Source: a bacterium
Lineage (GTDB): Bacteria; Patescibacteriota; Minisyncoccia; Phycocordibacterales; UBA1006
Assembly: GCA_043771175.1 (NCBI GenBank)
Contig: JAYVHO010000006.1
Coordinates: 9,800-73,799, forward strand
DNA: 64,000 bases
Direction: 5' to 3'
The position numbers and the translations under genes were made by a program. Positions 12,001-63,158 of the stretch are shown one piece after another (the stretch's first letter is position 1; every line of letters begins with the position of its first letter). Below the pieces are notes generated by a model that saw only the letters and a list, made by a program, of their open reading frames with translations, did no database searches and was not told where the DNA came from.

Positions 12001-15000
12001 CAGAAATATCATCACGCACCAATCCTGCAACGTTATAATGGAACGCCGCATCAGCACCTGCGATTCCTCCGGTTAATGATCCATCCCATACGGTGGTGGT
12101 TCCATCAGAAAGAATATACTTTCCTTCATCAATGGAAGAAAGGGTATCTACATTTGAAAGTGTCTTTCCGTATTTAAGCGCCATGTATGATTCAATACGT
12201 TGTGTTTCTGCAGCAGTTTGTATAGATCCTTGCGCATAGGTAATTACTTCTCCAATGCGTCCAGTCATTGATGAAGTATTACTTGCAGTAGCACCAAGTA
12301 CCATTTGTGTCCCTGTTCCAGCAAATGACACCTGTGTTGCATCGAGTGAGTTCGTAAATACACGTCCATCTTTTTTAACACGTTGTCCAATAGTTCCATC
12401 ACCATCATTAGTAGTTGATCCAACTTCTGATGTTAAGTAATAAGTGTGATCGCTCATTCCAATATTCGCAGCAGAAACAATTACTTCATTGGTTGTTGCA
12501 TCTCCAAGACGTGAATAGTAGTTTGGTCCTGTTTGAAGAGCAATGGTTGCAAATCCGTCAGCAGAAAGAGTCGTATTTTCTGAAAGCAACCAGTCATTGG
12601 TTCCTTGTTCATCTGACATGTAGAAGAAGTACTTTGATGAGTTGGTATATGTTGTTCCTGTTCCCAAAATTCCGTTTGCATCGTAAAGGTTGTCTGATTC
12701 TGCAGCACAGGTATTATTACCAAATACAAAGTTAGTACTGGCGTTTACTCCACAAAATTGGAGTGTTTGTTGGTAGTTAGCATTAGCGTCAACTATCAAT
12801 CTTGGAATTCCTCCAGAAAGACCATCTGAGAAGTTATTTCCGTTTCCTGATTGATCTTTAATTAAAGCAACATCAGTTCCTGCAGTTGCAGCAGTGGTTC
12901 CAAGTGTGTCGGTATATACATCCTTGTCTGCACGTAGCCACAATTTAAGACCTGAAGCCACTCCTCCTGGAGCTTGTGCGTTATTTGGAAGTGCAATAGT
13001 AAAATAATCACCGTTTGCAAATGCAACACCAGAGAATGTTATAACAGTTCCAGAAACAGTTGGTGTGATTGGTGATATCGTGGCACCCGCTGCAAAGTTT
13101 GCATCAGCATCTATCAAAAGTCGAACTTGTGACATATCAGTTGCTCCAGCGTTGTGTGCAGCAAGATCAAGTGAAACATTCACCGTTCCAACATCTCCTA
13201 TTTTTTGAACTTGCCATTCACGGACAATTCGCCCATTCGTATACACAGGAAGACCAGCTGCCGGAAGTTCAGAATTTTGAACGCCAACTGCAGCACTGTC
13301 ACCTCCTACTGACAAGAATTCCATATCAGCAACCGTAGTGCTGTTTTGGTTTACTACTTCAATAATTGGTGAACCGGTCACAGATTGTGATGTTGTTTTA
13401 TATTTCAAAAGTCCAGAAACATCATCACGTCCAACTCCAGCAATACCAAGATTATGAGTTGAAGCACCTGATAGATCCTTATTCCACATCATTGTTGACC
13501 CATTAGATGCAAAGTATGTTGGAGAATTCGTTGTGTATTCAAAATATAAATCATTAGGTGACAATGATCCCGCTGCATTAAATGCAGTATTTCCTGTTCC
13601 TGGATAAATATCAGTTGAATTAGAGCGAAGTGCTACTGTCTTTCCAGCAGCCGTTGTATCTCCAAGAACCAAAGCATATGAAGTCCCAGCAGCAACAGTG
13701 TATGGTGTTGTTATAGAAATAGTAAATTTAGTACTTACAGGAACAACGCTGAGTAGTCCTGAAAGCCCAGCACCATACGTTACGGTTCCAACCGCTTGTG
13801 AATATGCAGGTGAAGCAATACATGCCGCAACATTTGTTGCATTTGGGTTTGAAACGATAGCACCAGTACAAATATAGAGATTAAGGTTTGATGAGTTGGC
13901 AGTCGCAGAACGTGTCATAAAACTCACATTAGTAATTGCAGCATTGGTTTTTGCCGTAAATACTTGTCCTACTGAGGTGCTTACCAGCGCATCTTGATTA
14001 TTAGTAAGTTGCAATTCTCCTCCCACTTGAGTAATTCCGTATTTAAATGCCAAATATGAGTTAATTTTATTTATTTCCGCTGCTGTATGTTGAGAGTTAT
14101 AAAATACCATTTCACCAACAGCACCATCAAAATTTTGTTCGCTGGTTGTATATGAACCAAAGTTCATCGCTGCAGTACTTGGTGTAATCGGACTATATGA
14201 AGCATTTTGTGCAACAGTTTTTCCATTTTGTTGAATTTGTTGTCCAATAAATGATCCTGTTGAATAATCAGCAGTATTGTAAAGATATGGTTGACCAAGC
14301 ACTGTACCAAGTGTCGTGTGTGGTACTGAAACAGTTGTACCGGAATCATGATATAACGTTGTGTTACTTAACGAAAGAATGAAATTTGTTCCTTGTCCTC
14401 CCCAAAGCCCTGAGTGAGAAACAGTACCTTGTGTTTCTTGTGAGGCAACGTTATATGTTTCCCAGTTTGAAAGTGTTGTTCCTGTTGGAAGCAAGTTAGT
14501 TGCAGTAGTTGTAAGTATATCGTTTTCTGCATCTTCAAAATCTACAACTGGGTTATAGTTAATCGCAAGTGTATTGGTTGCAGAGCGGAATTCTGGATTT
14601 GCTTGTTGTGTAGTCAAGTTGAACCCATTTCCTGATTGGTCTTTCCAAGAAGCCATAGAAGCTCCATCAGTTGCAACGGTAGTGTTTGCAGTTGTTGTAA
14701 ATGTCCCTGCGTCAGCCTTATACCATGCACGAAGTCCAGATGTTACTCCTCCTGGTGCGGTTCGAGGTAATACCATAGTAAAGTATTGTCCATCAACCAA
14801 TGACACACCAGTAAAACTTACACTGTTGTCAGTTGAATTATAAGTAGGTTCTCCTGAGGTTGGATATACCGTTTGTGTTCCACTGGCAAAGTTTCCATTA
14901 TCATCAACAACTAATCTAAATCCAGAAACATTTGCAGGAGAAATATTCATTGCATCCAAATCAAAAGTAAGCTTAAATGTTCCCATTGCAGGATCAACCG

Positions 15001-18000
15001 TAACTACATTGTTTACAATTGCATTTTTTTGGACTCTCCATTCACGCGATGTACGAGAGTTGGTAGCTGTTGGGATTCCGGTAGCTGGCATATCAGTTAC
15101 AACAATAGTTGCAGCTGGTGCGTTGGTTGATCCAACAAACATAAATTCTTTATCGTCAAGAAGTCCGGTGCTTTCTGCTTCTGTGGTAAGGAAAGAAACA
15201 GCTTCACCTTCTGCTTTTGATTTTGTATTGGTCAAAAGGAGTGCATTGTCTTTTGCAATTGCATGAACGTTATATACATAGTCATCACTTGCGGTTGTTG
15301 CAATATTTGCATCAACTACGTTTGATGTATTTGCGCTGATGTCAATTCCTTCTGAAGCATCAAACACAACTTGATTTCCTGATGAAACGTAATCACGTCC
15401 TCCGGTGCGGTATCCATCAACTGAAAAGTCCATATCAGTAGCGGCTGCAACCGTATCTTGGTTGATCATGGTTCCATTTGCGTAGTGGTTATTAGTAGTA
15501 TCACTATTAAGCACTAATGTTCCGCTTGCAGGTTTAACATGAATTACATAAGTGGTTCCAGCAGTTACCGCAAATCCAGCGTCAAATTGAACAGTAGCCG
15601 TAGTGTTAATTGATGGATTAGTTGGAAGGGTTGCTACTTTGTTTGTTTTTCCAACTCCAGGGTTTCCTGCAGTACATGTTGTAGCAGTTGCTGAAACTGA
15701 TGCATCACATAAATATACAGTTGCAGATGGTGCAGAGTTAGACGTTGATACTGTAAAACTTACTGAATTTACCGTTCCAGAATAATCAGCGGTAAAGGTT
15801 TGTCCAATAGAACCGGTATTTGTAGCTGATGTAGTAGTGTTATTGTATGCGTTACTTGCAAAGTTGGTTCCTTGCTGAGCAAGGGTAATACCATACTTAA
15901 TTGCCAAATATGATTCAATTCGTTCTCGATTTGATTGTGAAAGTTGCTCTTTATACACAATCATTTCTGAAATTGAACCAAGCCAAGTATCATTATTACC
16001 TCCAATATGAAAATTACTGGTGTTCATACTGGTCATATCCCACACGGTAGAAACAGAATTGAATCCGTTGGTTCGCATATTTACCGTTGAATCTGTTCCA
16101 CCATTCCAGTCCCATGACTGAAGCATTCCAGCACCCGGAACCATCATTGGATATCCATAGGTAGGGTTTGGAGTAGAAACATTTGAAAACATTGCAGGAC
16201 GTTCTGCTAATGTTCCAAGTATAAGAGTATCATTTCCAAGCTCTACAGCACTATCCCAACTAGATGTCGATGTGTCGTGTTTTCCAACAACAAAGAGTGA
16301 TCCAGCAGAAGTTGCGGTTGGAAATATTGTATTAGTACGATACAAAAGATCATCTCCGTCAAAATCAAGAGTTGGATGATAATTAACCGCTTCAGAAGTA
16401 GTTGCATCACGATATAGAGGTCTACTTGATAACGTAGGGTGTTGTACTGTATTTTCTAAAATTGAAGCATCTTTCCATGTATATACTGCTGATCCATTGG
16501 TTGTAGGTGTGGTTCCTCCGGCATCGGTATAGGTGTCTTTATCAGCTCTCCACCATCCAACAAGATTAGCATCAGGTACTTCAACAGGGTTATCGTTTGC
16601 AATTCCCCATGTTCGTCCTTCATTAAACACTTCAATTCCATCTGTATTAACAAAAGAAAGCCCTCCGATGGTGTAATACATTGGCGAAACATCTGGTGCA
16701 TCATAGGTGTATGAAATCGTAAGAATATCACCCGCTTGTGCAGCAACATCTTTAACGGTGATTACCTTTCCGTTATTTTCTGTTGAAATTTCTGTTGAAA
16801 GTGTTGTATCGTCAGCACTTACCTCTTCGGTGCCTGAGAAAATATTTTCAATAACATTTTGAATTTGCTCAATTACGGTTGGTGCTTCTACTGTTTCTGG
16901 TGCAACTTCAGGAAAAGTAACTTCACTACTAGCCACAGGAGCTTCTACGGTTGCAGGGGCAACTTCAGTTGAAGAAGTTGTTTCGGTAGTTACAGATGGA
17001 GCTTCAGGTGTAATAACTACGGTTTCTCCAGCTGGGATTTGTTCAATAATTGCAGGAAGGGTAACTTCTGGTGCTGTAGTTTCTGCAGGTGCTACCACTT
17101 CAGGAGTAGATGCACGAGAAATTACTGCAGTAACACCTTCTATGTCAAAATCAGCAGGTGCAAGCTCCTTAATAGAACCCGTAAAGTCTTCTCCAAAACG
17201 TACTGTCACGCTTGCTGGTGACTTACCGATAGGATACAGACGTGTTGCAATGATTCTTTCAATGGTTGCTTTTGCAGATTCTGCAACTACTACGGTTTTG
17301 GTAAGAGTTTTTGCTCCGCTTCCGTTATCAGTGGTAAGGTTAAAAATATAGGTACCTGATTGTCCAAAAATATAGTCATAGGTATAATCTGCAACCGTAT
17401 TGTTTGAGTCAAAGGTTACACATTTACCAGTATCAATAGGAGTAACGGTTTCAGTTGTTCCTGCAGGTGTAGTGATTGAAAGCGAATTAGTTGCTTCGCA
17501 CACTGGTGCTCCTGCATCATCAAGTACACCAATTGATATATTTCCCGTTTCACCTACCGTATAGGTATTTTGATCAAGGTTCATTGAAAGAACTCCCCAG
17601 GTAAAATCTTGTGAAAATGTTTCAACTTCGCCGGTAATAGGATTTAAAATTGATCCAGCAATGGTATAGGTACCAGGTGCTGCATCGCGAAGTGGAAACG
17701 CCATAATTACAGAACCTACTTCAAATGAAATATCTTCTGCTGGAATGGTGATGATTTGAGGTGCAGTAGTTGGTGCAACTGGTGCAGTTTCTCCATCTAC
17801 AGCTTCTGGAGCAACTTCTTTTTGAGTTGCTGTAAGGGTAATAAATTTACCAATGTCATTTGAGTCATTGATAAGGTCATCTGCTATTGCATTTACCTTT
17901 GCGGTATCGGTGCCAATGTCAGAGTAATCAGAAGGGTCAACTTCTGTGTTAGTGTTTAAAATATTTCCAATAGCACCAGAAATTCCAGAATTAGCTTCTG

Positions 18001-18694
18001 GGTTTGGGGTATTGATTTCTTTCTTGGTGGTAGTGATTCCAAGAATGGTTGCAAATGCTTCGGTGTCAGAAAGCTTGTCACCTTCATTTTTACCAACGAA
18101 GTCAAAATCTGCGATTTTTATTTTGATTTGGTTATCAGCAATTACTGATACTGGTTGTGGATTGATTACTGAATCAAGAATTGATACATCAGTGTTTTCT
18201 GGTGTAACTTCTGGCACAACAGGTGTGTCAGTTGGTGGTGTTGTAGGTGTAGTGGTGTCAGCAGGGACATTGGCGGGAATATCCAATGGTGGCGCATTCG
18301 GTTCTGAACCCGTGACCGACTGGTCTGCAGAAGTTTCTGTTACAGGATTAGTGGCAGGAACTACAACTTCTGAAGAAGAAGTATTGTCCGCAGGTGTTGC
18401 GTCAGGAGTGGTTGCAACCGCAGCAGGAGCCTCAGCAGATGGAACAGTCTCTATTGTTTGTGGTGCAGCATTTAATGTTGCATCTTGTCCGTTATCAACT
18501 GAAGAGGTGTCTGCAGATGGAGCAGCAGCTTCTTGTGCGTAAACTTCGACAACGGGTAAAAAAGAAGTAACCAAAAAACTTACCGCAAGTACGGTAGAAA
18601 GTACCTTGGTTAAGGTAGACGCAGAAGTAGTGGTAGTCTTTTTACCACGGATACTTTTGGTACTTGATTGAAAAACTTTAAAGAATGAATTCAT
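1..18694 (-). CDS. Giant secreted cell-surface protein (N-terminal >6,200 aa; 3' end beyond window): signal peptide, T/P/A/E-rich stalk, >=8 tandem modules with LamG/ConA-like lectin jelly-roll signature
   Basis: Hand translation of the minus strand from ATG at 18694..18692 gives MNSFFKVFQSSTKSIRGKKTTTTSASTLTKVLSTVLAVSFLVTSFLPVVEVYAQEAAAP... (N-terminal TM/signal, AQE cleavage-like site). An in-frame TAA lies 9 codons upstream of this ATG. Spot-checks of the frame (lines at 1, 5101, 9001, 12601) show no tta/cta/tca triplets in the codon phase. Recurrent module signature: ...TFAQKTPAAPGGVSTGL(K/R)AWYKAD.GVYSD... W.DQSGNGN... L.FDG.DD.L ... G.IAE.I.Y...LS..E..KIESYLA.KYG.TL, at least 8 times. 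The ORF track omits it because no stop codon falls in the window. Confidence 0.85.
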   Translation of the reverse strand, partial: MNSFFKVFQSSTKSIRGKKTTTTSASTLTKVLSTVLAVSFLVTSFLPVVEVYAQEAAAPSADTSSVDNGQDATLNAAPQTIETVPSAEAPAAVATTPDATPADNTSSSEVVVPATNPVTETSADQSVTGSEPNAPPLDIPANVPADTTTPTTPPTDTPVVPEVTPENTDVSILDSVINPQPVSVIADNQIKIKIADFDFVGKNEGDKLSDTEAFATILGITTTKKEINTPNPEANSGISGAIGNILNTNTEVDPSDYSDIGTDTAKVNAIADDLINDSNDIGKFITLTATQKEVAPEAVDGETAPVAPTTAPQIITIPAEDISFEVGSVIMAFPLRDAAPGTYTIAGSILNPITGEVETFSQDFTWGVLSMNLDQNTYTVGETGNISIGVLDDAGAPVCEATNSLSITTPAGTTETVTPIDTGKCVTFDSNNTVADYTYDYIFGQSGTYIFNLTTDNGSGAKTLTKTVVVAESAKATIERIIATRLYPIGKSPASVTVRFGEDFTGSIKELAPADFDIEGVTAVISRASTPEVVAPAETTAPEVTLPAIIEQIPAGETVVITPEAPSVTTETTSSTEVAPATVEAPVASSEVTFPEVAPETVEAPTVIEQIQNVIENIFSGTEEVSADDTTLSTEISTENNGKVITVKDVAAQAGDILTISYTYDAPDVSPMYYTIGGLSFVNTDGIEVFNEGRTWGIANDNPVEVPDANLVGWWRADKDTYTDAGGTTPTTNGSAVYTWKDASILENTVQHPTLSSRPLYRDATTSEAVNYHPTLDFDGDDLLYRTNTIFPTATSAGSLFVVGKHDTSTSSWDSAVELGNDTLILGTLAERPAMFSNVSTPNPTYGYPMMVPGAGMLQSWDWNGGTDSTVNMRTNGFNSVSTVWDMTSMNTSNFHIGGNNDTWLGSISEMIVYKEQLSQSNRERIESYLAIKYGITLAQQGTNFASNAYNNTTTSATNTGSIGQTFTADYSGTVNSVSFTVSTSNSAPSATVYLCDASVSATATTCTAGNPGVGKTNKVATLPTNPSINTTATVQFDAGFAVTAGTTYVIHVKPASGTLVLNSDTTNNHYANGTMINQDTVAAATDMDFSVDGYRTGGRDYVSSGNQVVFDASEGIDISANTSNVVDANIATTASDDYVYNVHAIAKDNALLLTNTKSKAEGEAVSFLTTEAESTGLLDDKEFMFVGSTNAPAATIVVTDMPATGIPTATNSRTSREWRVQKNAIVNNVVTVDPAMGTFKLTFDLDAMNISPANVSGFRLVVDDNGNFASGTQTVYPTSGEPTYNSTDNSVSFTGVSLVDGQYFTMVLPRTAPGGVTSGLRAWYKADAGTFTTTANTTVATDGASMASWKDQSGNGFNLTTQQANPEFRSATNTLAINYNPVVDFEDAENDILTTTATNLLPTGTTLSNWETYNVASQETQGTVSHSGLWGGQGTNFILSLSNTTLYHDSGTTVSVPHTTLGTVLGQPYLYNTADYSTGSFIGQQIQQNGKTVAQNASYSPITPSTAAMNFGSYTTSEQNFDGAVGEMVFYNSQHTAAEINKINSYLAFKYGITQVGGELQLTNNQDALVSTSVGQVFTAKTNAAITNVSFMTRSATANSSNLNLYICTGAIVSNPNATNVAACIASPAYSQAVGTVTYGAGLSGLLSVVPVSTKFTISITTPYTVAAGTSYALVLGDTTAAGKTVALRSNSTDIYPGTGNTAFNAAGSLSPNDLYFEYTTNSPTYFASNGSTMMWNKDLSGASTHNLGIAGVGRDDVSGLLKYKTTSQSVTGSPIIEVVNQNSTTVADMEFLSVGGDSAAVGVQNSELPAAGLPVYTNGRIVREWQVQKIGDVGTVNVSLDLAAHNAGATDMSQVRLLIDADANFAAGATISPITPTVSGTVITFSGVAFANGDYFTIALPNNAQAPGGVASGLKLWLRADKDVYTDTLGTTAATAGTDVALIKDQSGNGNNFSDGLSGGIPRLIVDANANYQQTLQFCGVNASTNFVFGNNTCAAESDNLYDANGILGTGTTYTNSSKYFFYMSDEQGTNDWLLSENTTLSADGFATIALQTGPNYYSRLGDATTNEVIVSAANIGMSDHTYYLTSEVGSTTNDGDGTIGQRVKKDGRVFTNSLDATQVSFAGTGTQMVLGATASNTSSMTGRIGEVITYAQGSIQTAAETQRIESYMALKYGKTLSNVDTLSSIDEGKYILSDGTTTVWDGSLTGGIAGADAAFHYNVAGLVRDDISALDQRIARSINNDNTMSIALDNNFTAANSDTVARPTQLATNKQAIMWGHNGGTQYFDTAVTTTNTNTRMNRVWKVKMTGLASRAVNIQFSNPSVMRLKNGQQYVILESATANMASPTELATATAVASGTTSLVTFAGVTLTTAKFYSLATKMIAPGGVTSKVINGVRSQIYIDNTWSDSFVSPTNWYANDALALENVGTGTSFAAPIMTSYADHIQGTNLGSVANGQWDDNYAEEFNGYIVIPTTGTGYTFTLDAGSATGNVDDAAQLWVDINADGLLDDTERIINIGSVSTATSASLTLTTPSAGLMRFRLRHKENATTDSIGISWTKTGTGAFARTALDSDDFRVEAPLAMWFKADAGAYDDYWTTKADPAVDNDKVNTWENSALVPNNDLVDAVTFVDGTGANYNSATGASGINFNPSLNVTSASLGIFTNARNTNATNGNQDANDYFGWTNGLAYMGGANTSFVVGMDPTVTASSEMFYSYGYDNGAGATNTSTTTFGRELTSGQLEIGQSSSNTANSYTGVIQSNVPFMFTGTTAAVTNPVGAVDSTVQTTYGYGLQRGTGTNTQRLHLGVSTRLYEVGDYADFGGHNFNGNISEIIHYPAQLSGTERYKVESYLAMKYGTTLLPFDRANGIETVVEGDYLSSTGAVVWDGNDTSVAATSFTGGHTKALNTENTQMSDVRFNTVTTAGCPSLGSCMYTSGTTTSGKVYQYTLSTPYVVSTAVYASKQFTVNAEVATPTALAFSNDGTKMYVAGAVGVVYQYTLTTAFDVSTAQTYAASGSKSLTIPSTTSVGMTFNNDGTKIFVLQGGNDFVYQFNLATAYDISTGVNSGITFDASNQDSNTNGLAFDATGTRMYIVGYTNDFVHQYVLTTAFDISTAIQVARFAVGTQDGQMAGIAFNPSGSIMVLVGNLSTTAVYDYDIPLVSIGVNALYSNEVTAIAQDNASGLLQLKSKSQMKNGMITIGTPSSLGDGDFLIVGNNGQDASTFISTGAYDGLGTATGYQRLNRSWKTQVTSTPGTVKIEVDTNDTDLDLPNITGPDGKLYLLGDITATGNGFADETPVVMYDDGTNGDTSANDNVWTAQTVTLVNTEVFTFGQKTPAAPGGVSTGLNLWVNAGSKVYSDTGSTLTTNGQSVRQWNDLSGNSNNMSQSTVGQRPIFAGSTSANAINFQPSLTFDAVDDNLQLAGSTSILSNVTNGRIFSMVTKPNLTGTWTSLFEQGAGNTNDPMFGIYDTDPVWYDNSASNRTSSIPMPAANTPFMLGFKWNTPGVGVGVTASVNGISETLAGFNNTFGAGPTKIGSENTETWDGNIAEIMSYNVEPSVTEVKKIRSYMAFKYGTTWLQPGDAQILNNVNMTIAADQGQQITAPSTGYINEITLKTGITTANGATGTLSICAGAVLASACAAAPAYSQSVTNIPTAVSTVFTIPLNTAFPITAASLYTFVLSTTSGTNINLIAQNTNAYAGGTATFASSVFAGDLFFTYSMTSPDYLASNGTTKMWDTTVAGTYNQDIAGFGKDTGSDLLTTKSKQQSINGIVTIAANVPADLADLEFVSISNKNSGFTTGWTTTAAPSGYQRIGTSAGQREWFYQENGDGVTTLNLSVDTTDTDSNISEVNGTDGKLYFLYDQNNDNDLLDATDLAPMYDDGTNGDTTNGDGIYNIQINLATATEFTFAQITPAAPGGVSGNLRAWYAADQDVTTVSDNDSNSLLDVNYWKDQSGNQIDMGMSTVSAYPDLYTGASAGAYNYNPTLLFDGSNDRLQDMDGDGPIGLISNAESFGADNLDTYTYIVSQTNSTVSSTLFHQGLSGGKKYQADSIVSGREYLFSGNATCSNAASSGCMYVNYYDSGNVLQRPYISTYGTQTTNATGKFIRKNGKVMISNSTDEIGKNVNDTTAISGTSDDFEIGAAEGTQYFQGRIAEMVFYVGNNSGQTDLEQTKIQSYLALKYGMTLSNVDPSGNGAAGSNDNDLFAGGFGEGDYILSDGTTSVWNGHTDGDDTGDSVGAEQATIVGGVAVSYHNDVAGIGRDDAGGLNRKIAHGVNDDDIVTMALDNHFFIANNDPTRTQMNANKTWLVWGNDNGSRFFDTPITHGSVNLRIGRTWKTKTTGTITTNPYVRIGGSSARAIDLIPGQTYTLLTDADGVFDSGSTAIATAIPQFKTAADVSTLYLDFGQVNFSTNAYFTVATYQSAPGGVVADYMPGLRVEAYNEFPSGNTSATDNENSIGKDSPYSVPHMMWYTSDFANIDDASISNIGLSNEEGSMEVYGQMNMTDTTQKVFNYTGTTNDMFSLWIDDQPIITGVATANSEGVYTPTSTGWKNVRVKWSNRGGTGDFNLTWKNNASTCSGSCINIPNNLLRVYAPQTAWYKAGTKMFTDTTGAAATTTDGTHIIRWDSVSPIINAAGRTDGGNTYENDSVNLVNGNPIINNNSDKFLVGTNVSSSLESTRTIYTWGLPMMNAARTLYSAVTAATPTATQFLFTYGDDVTPTARYPYGTENAAGEIRVRDHQINNMEVTPGTIEQQSANTPFTMGASYSGGDSAATTTNTNSIWGNGKRTAYLTTNISMQTNDQLELRINGSNYDTADWTGRVGEHILYPWELTSVQRQKVDTYLSLKYGTTYIGGEDQLSLNATNTASTNVGQVITASVTGGINNITLQTGATANAAGGTLHICTGAVAMATCIASPISATHYSQVLTTIPTALNTNFTIPLTTPYEVIAGTQYTFLITAPTNVFLRIQSSDVYLGGNQAGFGTQDLYFDVDIKPDLVNGSGTTIWSYDTYHNYVTGIMKDNASALEQLSSLSTANTSTLGNGGIVRISKATLANNDALIIGDNNGSATTWTSSATIPSGYMRPGTASSVIEWRAREIGTAANNYTIAVNLENTQGTGSRNLPDVTALNNTLYTIFDSNEDGLLTDEVLGTGILAMNDDGINGDTTANDRIYSLSNVALDDTNKFTFAQNTLPTPGAVSTGIMAWYKANKGVYSDVNGTTPAVDGNSMNRWNDMSGNDKWMQMYSTAPTYRTTTAANPSTTTNTAINFNPVMYASGDGYAMQVPGARGGVLGTNTYNDVYAYVVVNNLDLSGNEDIYNHANTGTALNFRLGVSNTTTRLTNSAGTTLDSTNANAGTNTLTPYIWKTQVKTTGGNRMSIARNGAELTSSASGSAVTGNNGVSYLGVSNGWYNGGIAEAIYYGADQSSGTSQQKIESYLAIKYGITLNKGIDQNLQNDSNGGSGQTVGWGQTFTASATGQIGSITLQTNSSGTQNSGPGTLYLCNGASATSGTCIASPVYTQAFTAPTTASTVYTVQLTTPFNVTSGSAYTMVFGQTTGSFYNRFQSTSTYSGGTLLTSVGTQPTQDIYFAANYLANDYVLSNGTSKVYTALNNAYSQSITAIARDDAADLSQLKSRSVNATAIWTLGNGNNLSTPSTFSADLSGASIASNGADARVWTTTGAPTGKQVITRNWKFEKTGTVGTVTLAINTENTNSSNISDIPTISSANGILYLVVDDEAAATANFTDETGGTVIPMFDDGTNGDQTAGDKVYTINNLTLASGQYFTVAQNIPPAPGGYSTGMKAWYKADTGVYSDTGATVPAVQGTNQAVRWLDLSGNNKTLVAANIPDYQNATSSQAINFNAAVDFVGGNNEYMDVPASIGGILNADTYNDLHLYMVSAADSSGENNEMLNQTGMNGSGYFGIRGISQGGANHYIYGTSAQSVNFGNAGTTFPSTHMWHMYNKTTGPDEVSLLRDNKVMITYPVASPMTSTNAYTRLGGGQFAYSDQKMGEIIVYAGDNTSGDINQRIESYLALKYGLVMDQTVPTDYIASDSTTKMWSSDSLVTEATYVNDIFGIGRDDASGLSQVKSKSRSQADTGIITLSTTSGTIPTDKSFMTMADNGGSASFVTGQAPTGYQILGKRWQVQQPSSDIGNVTLQIDVNDSQFNIANASNFSLMIDTDNNGTYFNESVSNGGVYPLYDDGTNGDVTANDSVWTIQNVDFQTLTNAQE

Positions 18695-19090
18695 AATAAT
18701 GTTGTTTTATAAAGTGATTTATAAATAGTTTAATAAATAATTACATCTACAACGATGTGCATATATTGTAACATTTTGAATACAATCTATTCATATAAAA
18801 TTCATAAATCACCATGTTGATAAGTGATATTTTTCAAATGATTTGCATTTTAAATTTTCTCTTTTATTACTCATTTGCATAAAATTTTTTAACAACATCT
18901 TGTCCGTTAGAAATAATTTATTTATCAGATTAACCGCTCTAACTAATTCTTTTTTGAAAAGCTTCATCCTAATTAGTTTTTGTTATCACCATGTTTTTGA
19001 ATACAAATTAATCACAATATACCAAGCTGGAACAAAACACTTTTATAGACAGTGCATAGGCGAGATTCATAAAAAATGCAGCTGACAAGC
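18695..19090 (-). promoter_or_regulatory. AT-rich upstream region of giant gene (probable promoter/5' leader)
   Basis: ~400 bp of very AT-rich non-coding sequence immediately 5' of the giant ORF start. No convincing ORF; the 18843..19085 '+' ORF is low-complexity AT-rich. Confidence 0.35.
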
Positions 19091-38283: not shown

Positions 38284-41022
38284 CTATTTCTTAAACCGTG
38301 AAAAAATCTCTGCTTCAACTTCTGCTCGTGGTGTTCCATATTTAAGTTGTGAAAGTTGTTTAAGTTTTTCAATTTGATCAAAATTACCCTCTTTCAAACG
38401 TAGAGTCTTAATATTAAATGCACGCTGTGGGACTCCACCAGAAAGCATAGAAATATACGCCGTTTGATTTTTCTGTTTGATAATATCCTCTTTGGTAAAC
38501 ACTGGTTCAAGACGTTTTTGAAGCTGTTCGGCATCGTCAGGATCTACTCTAAAAACAGCAATGGTTCCCACATTTCCAAATACCGCATTTTTAATATTGT
38601 CATCAAGCTGACGCAAGTATTGATGAGCCACATTTAAAGAAAGTCTATATTTACGAGCTTCTGACAAAATAGAAGCAATAGACGGTGTGGTAATATTTTG
38701 AAACTCATCTAAATATAAATAAAAATCTCTATGCTTGGTACCATGAGCTGCCCCCGCTCGCCCCAGTGCCGCCATTTGGATTTTATTCACCAGTAAAAGC
38801 CCAATTAAACTTGAATTAATTTCACCGAGTCGCCCTTTTGAAAGGTTAACCAATAAAATTTTTCCTTGATCCATAATTTCACGAATATTAATGGAAGATT
38901 TTTGTTGCAAAATTATGGGACGTAAAAACTCATTGGTAATAAACGGGTCAAAGAACCGTGACACATATGGCACAAAATTTTCCATCTTTTGATCACCGGT
39001 GGCTTTTTTGGCATTTTCAAAGAATTGATTAATAATAGGATTTTTACATTTTGAAAGTTTCATATTTCTGAATTCCTCATCACCTAATACGCGAGTGATT
39101 TCAAGAAGGGTGCTTCCTGACTGCGGATCTTCCATAACCAACATGGCAGAGTTTTTAAAATATTGTTCAAACGCAGGGCCGGCAGTTGCTTTTAGATCAA
39201 ATAATTTATTAAAAATAACCATCAGCTCATCTATCACTAATGTTTTTTGTTCAGGATACAGTGGATCATATTCCAACATATTTAAACCCATAGGGCGTTC
39301 AATATTTGCTGGGTCAAAATAAATAACGTCATCCATACGTTCTGGAGGAATCATAGAAAGTATAGATTGGATGTCGTTCCCGTGCGGATCAAAATATGCC
39401 ACTCCTTCTCCATTTTTAATATCTTGTTCAATCAGTGTCATCAGGGCTCCTGTTTTACCGGTACCAGTTTGCCCAATAGCATAAAAATGTCGTACTCGGT
39501 CTTCTTTGGGATAATGAATATTTGTTTCTTTTCCGCCATGAACATTAATTCCCAGGAGTATTCCTTCTTGCAGAAGCTCCAATGGTGCGGGTGCTGTTTT
39601 TGCTTCATTAAATTTAACTTCAGGCAAAAGATTTTGATTTAGTTGAGGAAAATGAAACAATGTAGCAAGCTCTTCTGTTCCTAAAATAAAATCCTCATTT
39701 CCCTTTGATTCTCTAAAAATAAATTGTGTGATAAATTCATCTAAATGTTTATCTTCAATACGTTTTGCAATATACGAATTTCCTGATGGATGTCTCATTT
39801 GCATAATAGACCCACCAATTTCAGTTATTAAAGAATCTGATTTTTGCTTGGTTTGACCGCAGACTATAATACCCACAGAAACTCTAAACAAATGATGAGA
39901 AAGTTTTTTCTGTAACAATGATTGACGCTCAGTATCATCATGACTTTTGGTTACTTCTTCTGTTTTTTCACTTCCCATAAATAATGATGTTAGTGCTTTG
40001 GTAACAACATGTTTTGAAGCCTCAGACACAGCATGTTTCATTTTTGAACCTTTCAATAAAAGCTTATTTACCTCTTCTAATTCTTTTCTGTCTTCTTTAT
40101 GTTCTTTTGAAAAGGTGATTTGAATGGTTGCACCTTCTTTATCTTTTTCAAGACGCGACAACATATTAACAATCACTTGCAGCGGGTCTGTCTCATAATC
40201 ATTATATGATGGCAAGGTGTATGCACTGTGTTCTTTTAACGTTACTTCTGCAGCACTTAAAAATCCTGATTCCATAAACATATTAGTGTCATCAAACAAT
40301 TCTTTAATTTGTATAGTGGGGAAAAATCCCACGATTGATTTTTCTACCGCAACTTTTTTATCTTTTGGTACCGCTATAAAAAAGACAATCTGTCCACGCG
40401 ATGGTAAAAAAGAGATTTCAAAACTAATACTTGTTTCATCATCCAGTATTGATGAAAATGAAGAATATATCTGCTCCATAGTTGCTGCCAAACTTTTATG
40501 ATTTATTTTTTCTCCCTGATGATCTGGCTGAATGGTAATTTCTAGAAGTGATTTGTGAGTTGGTTCAAAAAAACGTTTTTCAATAATTGGTTCTGCACCA
40601 TTTTGCTTTAAGTATGTTTGTACATACTGAACTAAAAACCTATGAAAATCATCTTCAATATGAGGATTGTGCAGTCCTTCAATTAAAGAAAGTGTCTTGG
40701 CAACACCATGCAACTGCATAAAAGAAAAAACAACCGCCATGTTTTCATCATGTGATTCTGGCGTTAATATTCTTCTTACTTCTTCAAAGAGTTGTTGATT
40801 TTGTTGTTCTGCAAGTGGTATTATTTCTGTCGCTTGTGGTGCCGTGGTCATTACGGTTTTTGAAACTTCTATTTGCTGCTTCATGGGAACTGCCGCAAAT
40901 TCAGGTTTTTTAAATGCTTCATGATTTCTATAATATTCAAGTTCTTGTTTGATATGGTCAGGAAGCTGTTCGTGTGACGGAGGGTTTGGTATAAAATTTT
41001 GTTTCATGGGAATACCATTCAT
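38284..41022 (-). CDS. P-loop NTPase of the VirD4/TraG/TrwB - HerA/FtsK superfamily (C-terminal ~450 aa) with ~450-aa N-terminal region of unknown function; no TM segments
   Basis: Walker A HFYAIGQTGTGKTGALMTL; ...AYFDPHGNDI...; Walker B-like RDFYLYLDEFQNITT; ...RKYRLSLNVAHQYLRQLDDNIKNAVFGNVGTIAVFRV... typical of type IV coupling-protein-like ATPases. Confidence 0.65.
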   Translation of the reverse strand: MNGIPMKQNFIPNPPSHEQLPDHIKQELEYYRNHEAFKKPEFAAVPMKQQIEVSKTVMTTAPQATEIIPLAEQQNQQLFEEVRRILTPESHDENMAVVFSFMQLHGVAKTLSLIEGLHNPHIEDDFHRFLVQYVQTYLKQNGAEPIIEKRFFEPTHKSLLEITIQPDHQGEKINHKSLAATMEQIYSSFSSILDDETSISFEISFLPSRGQIVFFIAVPKDKKVAVEKSIVGFFPTIQIKELFDDTNMFMESGFLSAAEVTLKEHSAYTLPSYNDYETDPLQVIVNMLSRLEKDKEGATIQITFSKEHKEDRKELEEVNKLLLKGSKMKHAVSEASKHVVTKALTSLFMGSEKTEEVTKSHDDTERQSLLQKKLSHHLFRVSVGIIVCGQTKQKSDSLITEIGGSIMQMRHPSGNSYIAKRIEDKHLDEFITQFIFRESKGNEDFILGTEELATLFHFPQLNQNLLPEVKFNEAKTAPAPLELLQEGILLGINVHGGKETNIHYPKEDRVRHFYAIGQTGTGKTGALMTLIEQDIKNGEGVAYFDPHGNDIQSILSMIPPERMDDVIYFDPANIERPMGLNMLEYDPLYPEQKTLVIDELMVIFNKLFDLKATAGPAFEQYFKNSAMLVMEDPQSGSTLLEITRVLGDEEFRNMKLSKCKNPIINQFFENAKKATGDQKMENFVPYVSRFFDPFITNEFLRPIILQQKSSINIREIMDQGKILLVNLSKGRLGEINSSLIGLLLVNKIQMAALGRAGAAHGTKHRDFYLYLDEFQNITTPSIASILSEARKYRLSLNVAHQYLRQLDDNIKNAVFGNVGTIAVFRVDPDDAEQLQKRLEPVFTKEDIIKQKNQTAYISMLSGGVPQRAFNIKTLRLKEGNFDQIEKLKQLSQLKYGTPRAEVEAEIFSRFKK

Positions 41023-50458: not shown

Positions 50459-50531
50459 ATAATTTGTGAGTATTACGAATATGTCATAAGTATATCACTA
50501 TAAAAAAACACCCTCGAAAGGATATTTTTTG

Positions 50532-50616
50532 TGCCCAAGAGAGGACTTGAACCTCCATGCCCGTTACAGGCGTTACCACCTCAAGGTAGTGCGTCTACCA
50601 GTTTCGCCACCTGGGC
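50532..50616 (-). tRNA. tRNA-Leu (anticodon GAG), long variable arm
   Basis: Minus-strand GCCCAGGTGGCGAAACTGGTAGACGCACTACCTTGAGGTGGTAACGCCTGTAACGGGCATGGAGGTTCAAGTCCTCTCTTGGGCA. Anticodon loop TTGAGGT. Class II variable arm. CCA not encoded. Confidence 0.8.
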
Positions 50617-57910: not shown

Positions 57911-57982
57911 GCCCCTGTAGTTCAATGGATAGAATAGGTCCGTCCTAAGGATTTGATGGTGGTTCGATTCCACCCATGGGCA
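57911..57982 (+). tRNA. tRNA-Arg (anticodon CCT); one C-U mismatch in acceptor stem (5:68)
   Basis: GCCCCTGTAGTTCAATGGATAGAATAGGTCCGTCCTAAGGATTTGATGGTGGTTCGATTCCACCCATGGGCA. Anticodon loop GTCCTAA. Confidence 0.7.
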
Positions 57983-58077
57983 CAAGATATCGCCATTTAA
58001 ACCGCGAATAAAACGTTCTTCTTCACACCCGTTTGGGAGTTTAGGATTTACATCAAATTCTTTGGTGTATCCATTAT

Positions 58078-58441: not shown

Positions 58442-58810
58442 TTATTTTATTAATCCAATAAATTTAAAATCATCGACCGCTTTAAAATTTCCAAATTCAT
58501 CAAGTAGTGCATTAAAATGGATTTCAATTTTAATACCGTCTGAAAGCTCTTTACTATAAGCAAATTTATTCCAGCCTAGCCAACGAGTATCTGTTAGTGT
58601 TGGCATTTTCAGTTTTATACCAAGACCTTTCGGATTTGCAAGAATTTCTTTCATTACTAATTCCTCTTGGAGCGTATTAGCAACATTTCGACCCGTCGAT
58701 CCTAAGCCTAATGGTTTAAGTGGTATTTGTGTAGCTATTGAAACCTCTTTTAGAGTATTATTTACGATCGCCTTTACCTCACTATTCCTTCACTTGCTGC
58801 TTTTATTAAA
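58442..58810 (-). pseudogene. Orphan effector C-terminal cassette: 116-bp pre-toxin homology (58695..58810) + 1-nt frameshift + intact 70-aa variable CT ORF (58442..58654) ending DDFKFIGLIK
   Basis: Upstream in-frame extension reads RNSEVKAIVNNTLKEVSIATQIPLKPLGLGSTGRNV...MKEILANPKGLG... The effector reads GNSEVKAIVNNTLKEVSIVTQIPLKPLGLGSTATQKTW... Frame broken by deletion (attacc to attcc) at ~58787 giving a TGA at 58790..58792. CT is ~50% identical to the effector CT (TDTRWLGWNKFAYSKELSDGIKIEIHFNALLDEFGNFKAVDDFKF vs NDSRWLGWSKLSYSRKVIDRGVEYLVEIHFNAKKINGTITLVDDFKF). Confidence 0.75.
58695..58810. repeat. Copy B of the 116-bp repeat, upstream of orphan CT ORF
   Basis: See copy A. Homology decays on both sides (58685-58694 unrelated; downstream of 58810 only patchy similarity, e.g. 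aggtcaagtg). Confidence 0.9.
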
Positions 58811-59430: not shown

Positions 59431-59520
59431 TTATTGGGTTATATTCTCAAGGAATTTAAAATCATCAATGGTGAAATAGCAAACAACCACGCTTTCAGCG
59501 AGATCACCATACACTTTTTA
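59431..59520 (-). pseudogene. Remnant of a third effector C-terminal cassette (28 codons ending ...VCYFTIDDFKFLENITQ*)
   Basis: Minus-strand translation: K V Y G D L A E S V V V C Y F T I D D F K F L E N I T Q stop. It shares the terminal (V/I)DDFKF motif and the 'stop + 3-4 nt + ATG' junction seen at the two other CT/immunity junctions. Confidence 0.5.
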
Positions 59521-60020: not shown

Positions 60021-62888
60021 TTATTTTACTATAAATTTAAAATCATCTACTAAGGTTATAGTTCCATTAATTTTTTTTGCATTAAAATGAATTTCGACCA
60101 AGTACTCAACACCTCTATCAATAACTTTTCTTGAATAGGATAATTTACTCCAGCCTAGCCACCTTGAATCATTTAATGAAGTAATTATAGTTGCGCTATT
60201 TAGATTAGGATTTGAAAGTATTTCATCCATAGCTAATTTTTCAGCAACATTCTTCGCCTCAATATAAGATTCATTAGTTTTTAGTGCTATTGACCACGTT
60301 TTTTGGGTTGCTGTCGATCCTAAGCCTAATGGTTTAAGTGGTATTTGTGTAACTATTGAAACCTCTTTTAGAGTATTATTTACGATCGCCTTTACCTCAC
60401 TATTACCTTCACTTGCTGCTTTTATTAAATTATCGGCATTAGACCCAAATTTAGCCATAGTAGCTGCTTTGAATAAAGAAAGGTCAAGTGCAGTAAGGGC
60501 AATATTTGGATATCTCATGACATACGCATCAATCCATTCTTTGTCTGTCGCAGGTACACCAAATACATTAGATCCAGTATATGCTATTTTGATTTGATTT
60601 ACTGATACCACAGTACCTATTGCTCCAAGAGTCCCAAGAGAATAAGTCACCGCAGCAGGACATCCCACCCCGGCCGAATAAAAACATATAGCCGCTGACC
60701 CCCCTACAAGTATAACCGTTGCTCCTGCCATTGTTACTATACTTCCGATACTGGTGAATTCTGCCTTTGTCTCTGCTTTTGATTGAGATAACTGCGTACG
60801 GAAATCAGAAACAGCAAGATCTTCTGAAATTTTGTCGAATGCTCGGGCAAGGGAAATTTCAGAATCAATAAGGGATTGAGTTTCACTTGTATTCGTATAT
60901 GTTATAGTCGTAAACCCAAAACGAGCCTTTTCCGTGTCGATAGCCATCTTTGCTGTTTTTATTACAGCGTCTTGTATTTCAGCACTTTTTAATTTACTAA
61001 TTTTATAGGTGAGTGTGTTTATTGTTATTTGATTATTGGTTTTATACGTAGATAATACGTTTGTCTTTGCAGTTATTTGAGATTTAATGCTTGAAATATC
61101 AGTAGTAAGTGTGGCCAATAATGACTTAAGTCTTTGTATTTCTGTATCTCCAAATGCTTTTAGTTTCTGTGCTTTAGCAAAATCTGCAGAGGCATTTGAT
61201 ACTTCTGCTTTTGCGTCTGTTTTTTGATTATTAAGTGAATTTATTTGCGATTGATAAGAATTTATTTGGTTGTTCCAATAGGTAACATTGGATTTGGCAG
61301 TAGATGCTTGATTAGTGAAACTTATATATGAATTGTAATAATTATTTGATATAGCAGTATATCCTTTTTTATTTTTGTAGGTATTGTAATTATTTAAGGC
61401 CGCTGATGCTTGAGCGGTATATGAATTTGCTTGATTGGTATATGTTGCTACATTATTATTTGCTGAACTAATTGATTTACTGATATTAGCAATTTGAGAA
61501 TCCAGACTCGATAATTTTGCGTTCAGATTTGCAGATAGCTTTGAAACCGTTGCGGATGATGCAGTTACTTGTGATCCAACCGCACCTAATGAGTAAGTAA
61601 CTCCATTTTGAATGAATGATCCACTATTAATTTTATTGTTTAAATCTGTTGCAGACGCTTGTTTGGTAGCAAGAGAAGAATTTAAAACAGAAAGATCAGA
61701 ATTATATGCCGTTATTTTTGTATTAATTGCATCTAATTGAGATTTGTACGTAGCAATACTAGAAAGAGATCCACCACCTTCTGTAAGCAAGGCTTGCAAA
61801 TTAGAAATGGCTTGTATATACAAAGATTGATTTCTGGCTATTTCATTAAGACTTTTTAAGATATCAACAGTACCGACAGCACCTTGGTTATCTTTGTCTG
61901 TTTTTGCGGTTACATCAACGATACTATCAAGTGTTTTTTCTTGAGTAAGTGCTAGTGGAGTCTTCAAACCATTTCCCAATTTTGTATAACACGCCGCTCG
62001 TGCAGTATTACGTGTTGTCAGTGTTGTTATTTTCATTGCTGATGCAATACATACTTTAAAAGCATTAACTATATTTTGAGTTGAAGCATCAGATCCATCT
62101 ACGGAAATTGCTGCAATGTATACAGGAACATACTTCCCCCATATGGTCATTGCTTCTTCGTCTGATATATCAAAACCTTGTGGGTTTGTATCAGAAACCA
62201 CGAGTGCAGAGCCTGTATATATATGTTCAAAATCTTTTACGGAATATTTAATATTTCCCGCTTCTGTATCTGATAGTTCAACAATTCCTTTCACAGAATT
62301 ATATTCGCGAATTACTGAAAAGTGTCCTCCGACTTCTTTTTTTTCATCGTGAATTAATACGGGGTCACTAGTTTCACTTATATATGAAAGGATTTCGTTC
62401 GAGTTCCATTTTTTTAAGAAAACTTTTTGTGAAGTAAGTTGTGAAGCAGCTTGTTTAAGAGCAAATAAATTTGTTCCTTTTTCACTATTGAGATTTTCTG
62501 ATGCGATAAGGGCAAGTACTTCACTTTCAGAAATATCATCACCCAATTGTGTAAGCAGGGTTGCCAACGATGCCGGACCGCAATAATAGTCTTTTGATTG
62601 TCGTACAACGGCAGTAAAATCTTTTTTTGAATCATTTTCCGCTGTGTCGTCTCCAAGATCAAGATCTGCGTCGTCTTCTTCAGGTTCGGTTTCTAGCACC
62701 TGTGTGTCTGGTGCTGTTGATTCCGTTAATACCGTTGGTGGAATTACTGATGTTGATAATTCTTCGGCATGTACCATGAATGGCATACCAACCATCGCAA
62801 TTAATTGTAAAAATGCAAGGGATTTTGTAGTATATAATTTCATATGATGATATAAAATAAATTTATAATGATAATATATACCTCCCAA
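60021..62888 (-). CDS. Secreted polymorphic-toxin-like effector: signal peptide - acidic linker - papain-like C39-type peptidase domain - ~370-aa coiled coil (N/S/Q/T-rich) - glycine-zipper hydrophobic segment - conserved pre-toxin region - variable C-terminal domain (…DDFKFIVK)
   Basis: Probable start MKLYTTKSLAFLQLIAMVGMPFMVHA/EE at 62843. C39-like: ...VVRQSKDYYCGPASLATLLTQLG... (Gln/Cys) ...EVGGHFSVIREYN... (His). Coiled coil: ...LSSLDSQIANISKSISSANNNVATYTNQANSYTAQASAALNNYNTYKNKK... Hydrophobic: SIGSIVTMAGATVILVGGSAAICFYSAGVGCPAAVTYSLGTLGAIGTVVSV. Pre-toxin: SEVKAIVNNTLKEVSIVTQIPLKPLGLGST, duplicated at 58695..58810. Confidence 0.8.
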   Translation of the reverse strand: MGGIYYHYKFILYHHMKLYTTKSLAFLQLIAMVGMPFMVHAEELSTSVIPPTVLTESTAPDTQVLETEPEEDDADLDLGDDTAENDSKKDFTAVVRQSKDYYCGPASLATLLTQLGDDISESEVLALIASENLNSEKGTNLFALKQAASQLTSQKVFLKKWNSNEILSYISETSDPVLIHDEKKEVGGHFSVIREYNSVKGIVELSDTEAGNIKYSVKDFEHIYTGSALVVSDTNPQGFDISDEEAMTIWGKYVPVYIAAISVDGSDASTQNIVNAFKVCIASAMKITTLTTRNTARAACYTKLGNGLKTPLALTQEKTLDSIVDVTAKTDKDNQGAVGTVDILKSLNEIARNQSLYIQAISNLQALLTEGGGSLSSIATYKSQLDAINTKITAYNSDLSVLNSSLATKQASATDLNNKINSGSFIQNGVTYSLGAVGSQVTASSATVSKLSANLNAKLSSLDSQIANISKSISSANNNVATYTNQANSYTAQASAALNNYNTYKNKKGYTAISNNYYNSYISFTNQASTAKSNVTYWNNQINSYQSQINSLNNQKTDAKAEVSNASADFAKAQKLKAFGDTEIQRLKSLLATLTTDISSIKSQITAKTNVLSTYKTNNQITINTLTYKISKLKSAEIQDAVIKTAKMAIDTEKARFGFTTITYTNTSETQSLIDSEISLARAFDKISEDLAVSDFRTQLSQSKAETKAEFTSIGSIVTMAGATVILVGGSAAICFYSAGVGCPAAVTYSLGTLGAIGTVVSVNQIKIAYTGSNVFGVPATDKEWIDAYVMRYPNIALTALDLSLFKAATMAKFGSNADNLIKAASEGNSEVKAIVNNTLKEVSIVTQIPLKPLGLGSTATQKTWSIALKTNESYIEAKNVAEKLAMDEILSNPNLNSATIITSLNDSRWLGWSKLSYSRKVIDRGVEYLVEIHFNAKKINGTITLVDDFKFIVK
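60313..60429. repeat. Copy A of 116/117-bp near-identical repeat (pre-toxin recombination anchor), inside effector gene
   Basis: gtcgatcctaagcctaatggtttaagtggtatttgtgtaActattgaaacctcttttagagtattatttacgatcgcctttacctcactattAccttcacttgctgcttttattaaa versus 58695..58810: 1 substitution + 1 single-base indel. Confidence 0.9.
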
Positions 62889-63085
62889 AAGATCTATACT
62901 ATGTCTTTAAACCAAAAATAAGGACGACAAAACCAGTAGAATGGTCTCGTCGTCCTTATTGTAAGATGTATGAAGTCTATCAGAGTCAAAAGCAGAGTCA
63001 ATGAGTGTATTTTATACAAGGCGTTGTTAAAAAACTAATATACACAAAACCCCTCTCGCAATTACGCGATTGGGGTTTTATTGTG

Positions 63086-63158
63086 TGTCCTCAGAAGGGA
63101 TCGAACCTTCGACCGTCGGCTTAAAAGGCCGCTGCTCTACCAGCTGAGCTATAAGGAC
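63086..63158 (-). tRNA. tRNA-Lys (anticodon TTT)
   Basis: Minus-strand GTCCTTATAGCTCAGCTGGTAGAGCAGCGGCCTTTTAAGCCGACGGTCGAAGGTTCGATCCCTTCTGAGGACA. Anticodon loop CTTTTAA. Confidence 0.85.

Follow-up and report, generated by a model that had tools for sequence, protein, structure and literature searches.

The window analysed here is a stretch of 64,000 nucleotides of contig JAYVHO010000006.1, from a bacterium of the Candidate Phyla Radiation (CPR; Patescibacteria). Its reverse strand carries a gene for a 940-residue protein that combines a signal-peptide-like N-terminus with a C39 peptidase domain, a coiled-coil stalk, a hydrophobic segment and a C-terminal tip, and that is followed by small putative immunity genes and an orphan toxin cassette (Table 1). 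The protein is very probably a polymorphic toxin, a reading that is based on the N-terminal part shared with its relatives, on recombining tips, on immunity-like genes and on orphan cassettes. Residue numbers are counted throughout from the ATG at 62843.

Table 1. Features of the toxin gene and of the cluster downstream of it (positions in the window).
Feature	Positions	Strand	Basis
Toxin gene, 940 aa	60021..62843	-	Public 940-aa record P0185; 35 homologues of 850-1100 aa
Predicted Sec-type signal peptide, residues 1-26	62766..62843	-	Read from sequence; predicted cleavage between VHA and EE
Pro/Thr- and Asp/Glu-rich linker, residues 27-75	62619..62765	-	Sequence
Peptidase C39 domain, residues 79-219	62187..62609	-	Pfam, PDB profile matches, invariant residues, predicted fold
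Catalytic codons	Gln82 62598-62600; Cys88 62580-62582; His174 62322-62324; Asp192 62268-62270	-	
Conserved post-peptidase module, residues 225-300	61944..62171	-	SD..A..WGKYVPV, then two helices with invariant Cys265 and Cys285
Coiled-coil stalk, residues 330-690	60774..61856	-	Proline-free, S/A/N/T-rich, heptad periodicity
Non-heptad insert in stalk, residues 404-425 (KINSGSFIQNGVTYSLGAVGSQ)	61569..61634	-	Family alignment
Gly/Ala-rich hydrophobic pre-toxin segment, residues 696-750	60594..60758	-	Kyte-Doolittle; subtype alignment A6
C-terminal toxin tip, residues 835-940	60024..60341	-	Profile A3, conserved residues, model
Recombination handle in main gene, encodes ..LIKAASEGNSEVKAIVNNTLKEVSIVTQIPLKPLGLGST	60313..60429	-	Repeated at 58695-58810
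Putative cognate immunity gene, 120 aa	59654..60016	-	Position, 4 nt after toxin stop codon
Decayed toxin-tip remnant, ..VVVCYFTIDDFKFLENITQ (stop)	59434..59517	-	Directly 5′ of second immunity-like gene; IDDFKF at 59452-59469
Second immunity-like gene, 154 aa	58963..59427	-	Homology to L003 ORF
Orphan toxin cassette	58445..58810	-	Handle copy 58695-58810 frameshifted by 1-nt deletion, then divergent tip
Putative immunity gene of orphan cassette, 119 aa	58078..58437	-	Position, 5 nt after orphan stop codon
Truncated barnase/RNase Sa-like remnant, GYTKEFDVNPKLPNGCEEERFIRGLNG	57984..58072	-	Abuts tRNA-Arg(CCT) at 57911-57983

Domain architecture of the toxin protein

The open reading frame (ORF) is uninterrupted across 60021..62888(-) and would encode 955 residues if translation began at a TTG codon. 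The ATG at 62843 is most likely the true start, because the public record of the same protein (P0185) is 940 residues long and the homologues begin with an equivalent methionine that is followed by the signal peptide. A GGGAGG sequence at 62881..62886(-), which lies 37 nt 5′ of the ATG used in the public record, is too distant to be its ribosome-binding site, and a 19-bp hairpin with a T-run is present at 62917..62960(-), between a tRNA-Lys gene and the toxin gene. Under translation table 11, ORFs are dense across 18-64 kb of the window. An alternative genetic code was rejected, as the long ORFs are the same under tables 25 and 4.

The N-terminal 26 residues look like a Sec signal peptide, and the protein is presumably exported by this route. 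On reading, MKLYTTKSLAFLQLIAMVGMPFMVHA (followed by EE) has an n-region with lysine, a hydrophobic core and a VHA cleavage site; residues 8-26 form a hydrophobic segment on the Kyte-Doolittle scale, and Ala26 is nearly invariant in the family alignment. The linker that follows is poorly conserved except for D71 and K74. Both elements had been proposed in an initial annotation of this DNA, which was made from the sequence alone and whose quoted peptide strings are all present in the translation.

The same annotation had placed a C39- or papain-like domain with a Gln-Cys...His arrangement behind the linker, an assignment that is confirmed by several lines of comparison. The Pfam Peptidase_C39 model (PF03412) is matched at E=4.4e-15, with 56.1 bits against a gathering score of 22, and the threshold is also passed by all 10 homologues scanned. 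A search of the PDB with the whole protein sequence gave no match, and C39 structures were reached only by the N-terminal family profile; profile A4 (25 family members) matches the peptidase domains of PCAT1 (E=9e-11), ComA and LahT. In HMMER alignments Gln82, Cys88, His174 and Asp192 coincide with the Gln, Cys, His and Asp residues of PCAT1-type transporter peptidases, and this catalytic set is invariant or nearly so across 35 homologues. An AlphaFold model of residues 66-312, with a mean predicted local distance difference test (pLDDT) of 85 and a core above 90, superposes on the ComA peptidase domain (5xe8_A) with a template-modelling (TM) score of 0.86 and a root-mean-square deviation of 2.0 Å over 141 columns; the adjacency of Cys and His is taken from this superposition and is not a measured distance. 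Fold searches with the C39 model returned PCAT1, the ComA peptidase domain and LahT as best matches, and also 3k8u and C39-fold toxins such as StbD-CT (8ssk). Residues 79-219 are thus, by all sequence and fold criteria tested, a true C39 peptidase domain with an intact active site.

Three motifs are invariant in the family only, namely H165-D166-x-K168, S191-DTEAGN197 and G236-x-YVPV241, and the first two are missing from PCAT1. The conserved module behind the peptidase contains the invariant residues G236, Y238, V239, V241, C265, C285 and Y286 and is modelled with two helices (pLDDT 57-85). A disulfide between Cys265 and Cys285 is possible and would be in keeping with an extracellular location. 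Scans of the toxin protein revealed no ABC transporter domain in Pfam or NCBIfam and no cell-wall-binding domain in Pfam.

The middle of the protein had been described as a heptad-rich coiled coil of about 370 residues with an N/S/Q/T-rich composition, and it stands at about 360 residues. There is no proline in the 361 residues from 330 to 690, in which serine makes up 15%, alanine 12%, asparagine 11% and threonine 11%. Windowed heptad power at periods 7/2 and 7/3 gives z=7.8, a value reached by 0 of 2000 shuffles, and the C39 region used as a control gives z=0.1. Hydrophobicity peaks at 3.5 and 2.33 residues with a contrast between registers, the heptad signal recurs in 11 of 11 homologues tested (z = 5-12), and the stalk weakly matches SMC/Rad50 coiled coils. 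The stalk also contains the non-heptad insert KINSGSFIQNGVTYSLGAVGSQ, whose sequence is strongly conserved almost throughout the family (L419 and G420 hardly vary) and which might serve as hinge, tip or binding site.

Behind the stalk, the Kyte-Doolittle mean of residues 696-750 rises to 2.0 over 19 residues. In six relatives, G707, G714-G715, C720 and C728 are invariant (alignment A6), and AlphaFold renders the segment as low-confidence strands (pLDDT 36-60). The initial annotation had called it a glycine-zipper hydrophobic hairpin. The hydrophobic Gly/Ala-rich stretch stands, and the glycine-zipper label is ruled out by the lack of GxxxG: neither GxxxG nor GxxxGxxxG occurs in the segment, GxxxG occurs nowhere in the whole protein, and a zipper-type motif is found in the corresponding segment of only two of five close relatives. 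A divergent form of the PT-TG pre-toxin domain was likewise rejected. Residues 682-940 have no Pfam match at all, to PT-TG (PF14449) or any other model, even at E<=10, and hhalign against the PT-TG subtype returned a probability of 0.1%. Profile searches with the hydrophobic module found nothing outside the family at a database-wide E-value.

The C-terminal tip is modelled with high confidence (pLDDT >90) as a helix and three long antiparallel strands, and it is also present in the family members P0005 and P0019. Its conserved residues are D892, W895, W898, K900, H919 and D933-x-F935-K936, within the family consensus ..KPLGLGSTGR..E.LAM.EI..NP..G....L.D.RW.GW.KM.Y....G....IHYV.K..NG...AVDDFKFK. 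The tip sequence alone retrieved no homologue at a database-wide E-value, and profile A3 matched 518 representative proteins. In all 150 of the matches listed, which are from proteins of 65-3425 aa, the tip lies at the C-terminus or no more than about 20 residues from it, and the nine tip-bearing proteins scanned include Rhs, PT-HINT, PT-TG and TNT-containing proteins. Pfam at E<=10 has no match for the tip or for five typical tip relatives, and a PDB profile search with the tip gave nothing credible. Fold searches with the C-terminal model produced no assignment, the best values being E=0.023 in the PDB (NTF2-like sheets) and E=0.018 among the viral models of BFVD, and a literature search for the tip motifs DDFKF and LGSTGR found nothing relevant. 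Judged from these comparisons, the tip represents a widespread family of toxin tips that has no Pfam model or known fold.

Family polymorphism and the downstream cassettes

A database search yielded 35 proteins of about 850-1100 aa that have the N-terminal part in common. All eight loci recovered from species-representative genomes belong to metagenome-assembled genomes of CPR bacteria (Roizmanbacteria, Nomurabacteria, Paceibacteria, Peribacteria and Gracilibacteria), and the family has so far been found only in CPR genomes. Conservation is high until about residue 690 and then collapses, and the 35 homologues diverge from one another in their last 140 residues. Homologue tips that score above the Pfam curated threshold belong to CDI_toxin_EC869_like, Colicin_D (in one homologue only), RNAse_A_bac and Ribonuclease (barnase/Sa), and a GIY-YIG-like tip has a weak, sub-threshold Pfam match. 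The region between stalk and tip also varies in type. PT-TG is recognised by Pfam in P0003, P0007 and P0020 and by alignment in P0021, other members carry a four-Cys module that ends in an IP..G motif, and the hydrophobic type comprises the query, P0001, P0005, P0006, P0010 and P0013; further types exist in the family. The PT-TG-type proteins P0003, P0007 and P0020 pass no hydrophobicity threshold at the equivalent position. Because a segment of this kind is missing from many family members, it belongs to the exchangeable cassettes and not to the constant scaffold.

The modular layout with a toxic part at the C-terminus, which had been proposed for this gene, agrees with the toxin families that the homologues carry there. 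The colicin-like architecture proposed with it was abandoned, since a constant N-terminal part, swapping tips and orphan cassettes fit the frame of a polymorphic toxin.

The recombination handle, of about 118 nt, is present in two copies that are direct repeats 1.6 kb apart. Two blocks, of 92 nt (99% identity) and 24 nt (100% identity), make up the repeat and are separated by a 1-nt indel; the copies differ by one substitution overall, and the DNA diverges after them. The second copy introduces the orphan cassette, whose tip part (58445..58694(-)) is a member of the main tip's family and has 52% protein identity to the main tip over a 127-column local alignment that includes handle-encoded residues (E=3e-36). 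A crossover 3′ of the indel would yield an in-frame fusion of the main gene with the orphan tip.

Judged by their position, the small ORFs 3′ of the toxin most likely encode immunity proteins. The first, of 120 aa, has no Pfam family and weakly resembles the small ORF that follows it (E=0.003). The 154-aa ORF has a homologue (E=2e-8) in the Paceibacteria locus L003, namely the second of the small ORFs behind the toxin there, and the 119-aa ORF behind the orphan tip has no similarity to the first immunity gene. As in the window, a small ORF lies directly 3′ of the toxin in L003 and in a further locus, L006. In L003 the toxin is followed by two small ORFs and then by an orphan barnase-like toxin with an ORF of its own; at 13603..14393 of that locus there is an orphan barnase/RNase Sa-like ORF (117 aa) and then an ORF of 143 aa. 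The truncated remnant at the far end of the cluster in the window resembles, by eye, both this orphan toxin and the PF00545 tip of P0028.

The toxin-immunity cluster is bracketed by tRNA-Arg(CCT) at 57911..57983(+) and tRNA-Lys(TTT) at 63085..63158(-). The bracketing, together with a remnant that ends exactly at tRNA-Arg, suggests island-like insertion or repeated recombination. No dedicated secretion or transporter genes were found near the toxin, the scanned neighbours in the window being housekeeping genes; the flanks of L003 and L006, whose ORFs were read as translations, also hold housekeeping genes and no transporter or secretion genes.

Three other features of the window were recorded. 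A 912-aa protein encoded at 38284..41022(-) has weak matches to TrwB/TraG-type coupling proteins (E about 3e-6), which hints that this small genome encodes a component of type IV secretion or DNA transfer. The left end of the window cuts through a stop-free frame of at least 6235 codons at 2..18706(-), in which Pfam recognises no domain at E<=1e-4 and the GC content is about 0.40, against about 0.34 for the remaining window. Giant surface proteins have been reported in CPR genomes, and this frame may encode one. At 50531..50616(-), ARAGORN called a tRNA of undetermined identity with a two-base anticodon 'tg' (Rfam tRNA, 44.9 bits), possibly a mis-parsed tRNA with a long variable arm.

Possible modes of action of the peptidase and the pre-toxin segment

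Taken as a whole, a Sec-exported polymorphic toxin in which C39 acts as a releasing peptidase is the account that we consider reasonably probable. The protein would be exported by Sec, and the stalk would hold the C-terminal part away from the producing cell. The C39 domain would then cleave its own chain or a neighbouring copy, freeing a fragment that carries the toxin. The pre-toxin segment would aid passage of the tip through the target membrane, and the tip would act within the target cell, probably on nucleic acid like the known tips of relatives. Homologous recombination at the handle could exchange the toxic tip. The role assigned to C39, that of a built-in processing peptidase that frees the toxin-bearing fragment, is held more tentatively, with chances that approach even at best. 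It is favoured, largely by analogy, because the active site is strictly conserved, because the constant N-terminal position is that of the ZU5, PrsW and PVC metallopeptidases, and because the C39 domain of StbD cuts its own chain after Gly-Gly.

Several observations weigh against this account. A family-wide Gly-Gly cleavage site was not found, and such a site was rejected after candidate motifs proved specific to subtypes or close relatives: VGG713-715 is conserved within the hydrophobic type and LLGG within the PT-TG type, and GGG at 356-358 occurs in close relatives only. Gly-Gly pairs, moreover, arise by chance in Gly-rich regions. The peptidase lies about 500 residues from the pre-toxin region, a distance that cis cleavage could bridge only if the stalk folded back or the protein formed oligomers. 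For the tip, the Pfam, PDB and BFVD searches revealed neither a fold nor a family, and the 120-aa ORF has no similarity to the ORF that follows the homologous toxin in L003. Finally, the hydrophobic segment may act as a stop-transfer anchor, and the protein would then have a different topology.

The segment could serve either for insertion into the target membrane or for anchoring in the producer, so that insertion is only one possibility. If residues 696-750 were a stop-transfer anchor, the weapon would be displayed on the surface, kept in the producer membrane and dependent on contact. The Kyte-Doolittle mean of 2.0 over 19 residues exceeds the classical threshold of 1.6, a second, weaker hydrophobic stretch follows, and other anchors were not seen, with no wall-binding domain in Pfam and, by reading, no lipobox cysteine or LPXTG-like C-terminus. 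However, many members lack such a segment, P0003, P0007 and P0020 falling below the threshold, so that anchoring cannot apply to the scaffold in general. Moreover, if the segment entered the membrane from outside as a hairpin, the turn between its two hydrophobic halves, which the conserved Cys pair flanks, would be exposed to the reducing cytoplasm. AlphaFold places no confident helices in the segment. Retention in the producer membrane is accordingly an explanation that we rate as somewhat unlikely.

The peptidase itself might have a target other than the toxin chain. Lytic domains of phage tail proteins open envelopes, and C39 could by comparison be an envelope-breaching enzyme that cleaves either a surface protein or a peptide cross-link on the target cell, or on the host of the CPR cell, and so lets the tip reach the membrane. 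The strictly conserved active site and the family-specific motifs absent from PCAT1 hint at a dedicated substrate. The failure to find a family-wide self-cleavage site points in the same direction, the profile weakly matches the endoisopeptidase PeiR (E=1.9e-4), and C39 would be extracellular if the signal peptide functions. Yet the strongest matches, by a wide margin, are to double-glycine leader peptidases (PCAT1 at 9e-11, ComA, LahT) and not to wall hydrolases, C39 and the toxin occupy opposite ends of the protein, and a cell-wall-binding domain is lacking in Pfam. We judge a role in breaching envelopes, the chief alternative to a releasing function of C39, to be unlikely.

A strict colicin-type reading takes the hydrophobic hairpin as a pore former like those of colicins A, E1 and Ia and the C-terminal part as accessory. 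It draws on the hydrophobic Gly/Ala-rich stretch of about 50 residues and on the colicin analogy of the initial annotation. Immunity proteins of pore-forming colicins are membrane proteins, whereas the immunity-like ORFs have, by reading, no signal peptide or long hydrophobic stretch. The segment is also without GxxxG, no pore-forming colicin domain is found in Pfam, relatives bear nuclease tips, and it is the last ~100 residues, not the hairpin, that are swapped and duplicated along with immunity-like genes, all of which makes a pore former very improbable. A tip and small ORFs that have no annotated family would also suit a protein that is no toxin but a structural surface protein or an adhesin equipped with a peptidase domain, the small downstream ORFs being unrelated to it. 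This reading can be practically dismissed, given that homologues with the same first 690 residues end in five known nuclease toxin families and that the locus holds an orphan cassette with a 118-nt handle and a tip common to Rhs and PT-HINT toxins.

Returning to the toxin with a releasing peptidase, a broader version of that account can be put forward as speculation that is more apt to fail than to hold. CPR bacteria, which do not have the specialised secretion machines of other bacteria, may use a self-contained, Sec-exported scaffold in which release by C39 is triggered by a cue and the pre-toxin modules are interchangeable. The cue might be contact or redox state, and the Cys-clamped hairpin or PT-TG might carry nuclease-type tips into a host or competitor. 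If true, ultra-small episymbionts would have a new way of delivering toxins.

Comparison with known systems

A large part of bacterial diversity consists of CPR bacteria, which live attached to other microbes. To our knowledge, almost nothing has been established about the weapons that they direct against hosts or rivals. On the evidence of this locus, they have complete polymorphic toxin systems, equipped for tip swapping and supplied with putative immunity genes and spare cassettes. The locus also offers a case for how a Sec-only cell might deliver intracellular toxins. It draws attention, too, to a widespread tip family (518 representative clusters) that occurs on Rhs and PT-HINT toxins as well. 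Filters set at a CheckM completeness above 95% tend to exclude CPR genomes. Such a filter (CheckM >95%) was applied in a 2025 survey of PT-TG toxins, whose main text makes no mention of C39. One paper on CPR genomes does no more than list a secreted C39 peptidase. The suggestion in the initial annotation that the arrangement had not been described for CPR bacteria agrees with the literature searched, in which there is no account of a scaffold that joins C39 to a coiled coil.

Among the systems considered, four identities (a colicin, a CdiA protein, a PT-TG protein in the case of this member, and a glycine-zipper protein) each failed the tests run. Pfam and NCBIfam scans of the protein found none of the hallmarks of CdiA, namely the two-partner secretion (TPS) domain, FHA repeats and the VENN/PT motif, and there is no CdiB-like protein among the scanned neighbours in the window. 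The nuclease colicins (E-type and colicin D) resemble the toxin in their modular build, their long helical region, the nuclease-type tip seen in its relatives and a downstream gene for immunity, which is putative here. In contrast to colicins, the protein has a signal peptide and no colicin translocation or receptor domains in Pfam, and there is no lysis gene. The locus is chromosomal, lies between tRNA genes and holds orphan cassettes, and the producer, presumably a monoderm, would lack the outer-membrane receptors and the Tol/Ton logic on which colicins depend.

Other C39 domains offer further parallels. The peptidases of the PCAT/AMS transporters (PCAT1, ComA, LahT) are the closest relatives in sequence and predicted fold and have the same Gln/Cys/His/Asp set. 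They are cytoplasmic, are fused to an ABC exporter and cut the leader peptides of small bacteriocins, whereas the C39 domain described here follows a signal peptide, has no transporter and carries its own motifs HD.K, SDTEAGN and WGKYVPV. A C39-fold domain is also found within a polymorphic toxin in StbD-CT of Citrobacter rodentium (PDB 8ssk/8ssm), and the C39 domain of the CdiA-like StbD cleaves itself in cis after Gly-Gly (bioRxiv 10.64898/2026.05.07.723447). There, however, C39 is the C-terminal toxin and has a cognate immunity protein, while here it is N-terminal, constant and without a paired conserved immunity gene. Giant proteins of Omnitrophota have an N-terminal C39 domain beside a signal peptide, for which self-cleavage has been proposed (bioRxiv 10.1101/2023.11.21.568195). 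As in the present family, a large secreted protein has its C39 domain immediately behind a predicted signal peptide, but the giant proteins extend to tens of thousands of residues with many enzymatic domains and are not polymorphic toxins with immunity cassettes.

The polymorphic toxins defined by Zhang, Aravind et al. (2012; PMC3482391), in particular their Sec-dependent class, are the system to which the locus conforms most fully. Like them, it combines a constant N-terminal part for trafficking or processing with variable C-terminal tips, a pre-toxin module, a downstream immunity gene, here putative, and orphan tip-immunity cassettes with a shared handle. Constant N-terminal processing peptidases are known from other polymorphic toxins in the form of ZU5, PrsW and the PVC metallopeptidase, and in the 2012 survey C39 figures only as a C-terminal toxin, Tox-PLC39 (PMC3482391). 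In the present family, by contrast, the constant peptidase is C39, the toxin is presented by a coiled coil instead of RHS, FHA or ALF repeats, and the distribution is confined, as far as found, to CPR. The design of a polymorphic toxin is thus a known one, and what is new is the scaffold, a secreted C39 domain joined to a coiled-coil stalk.

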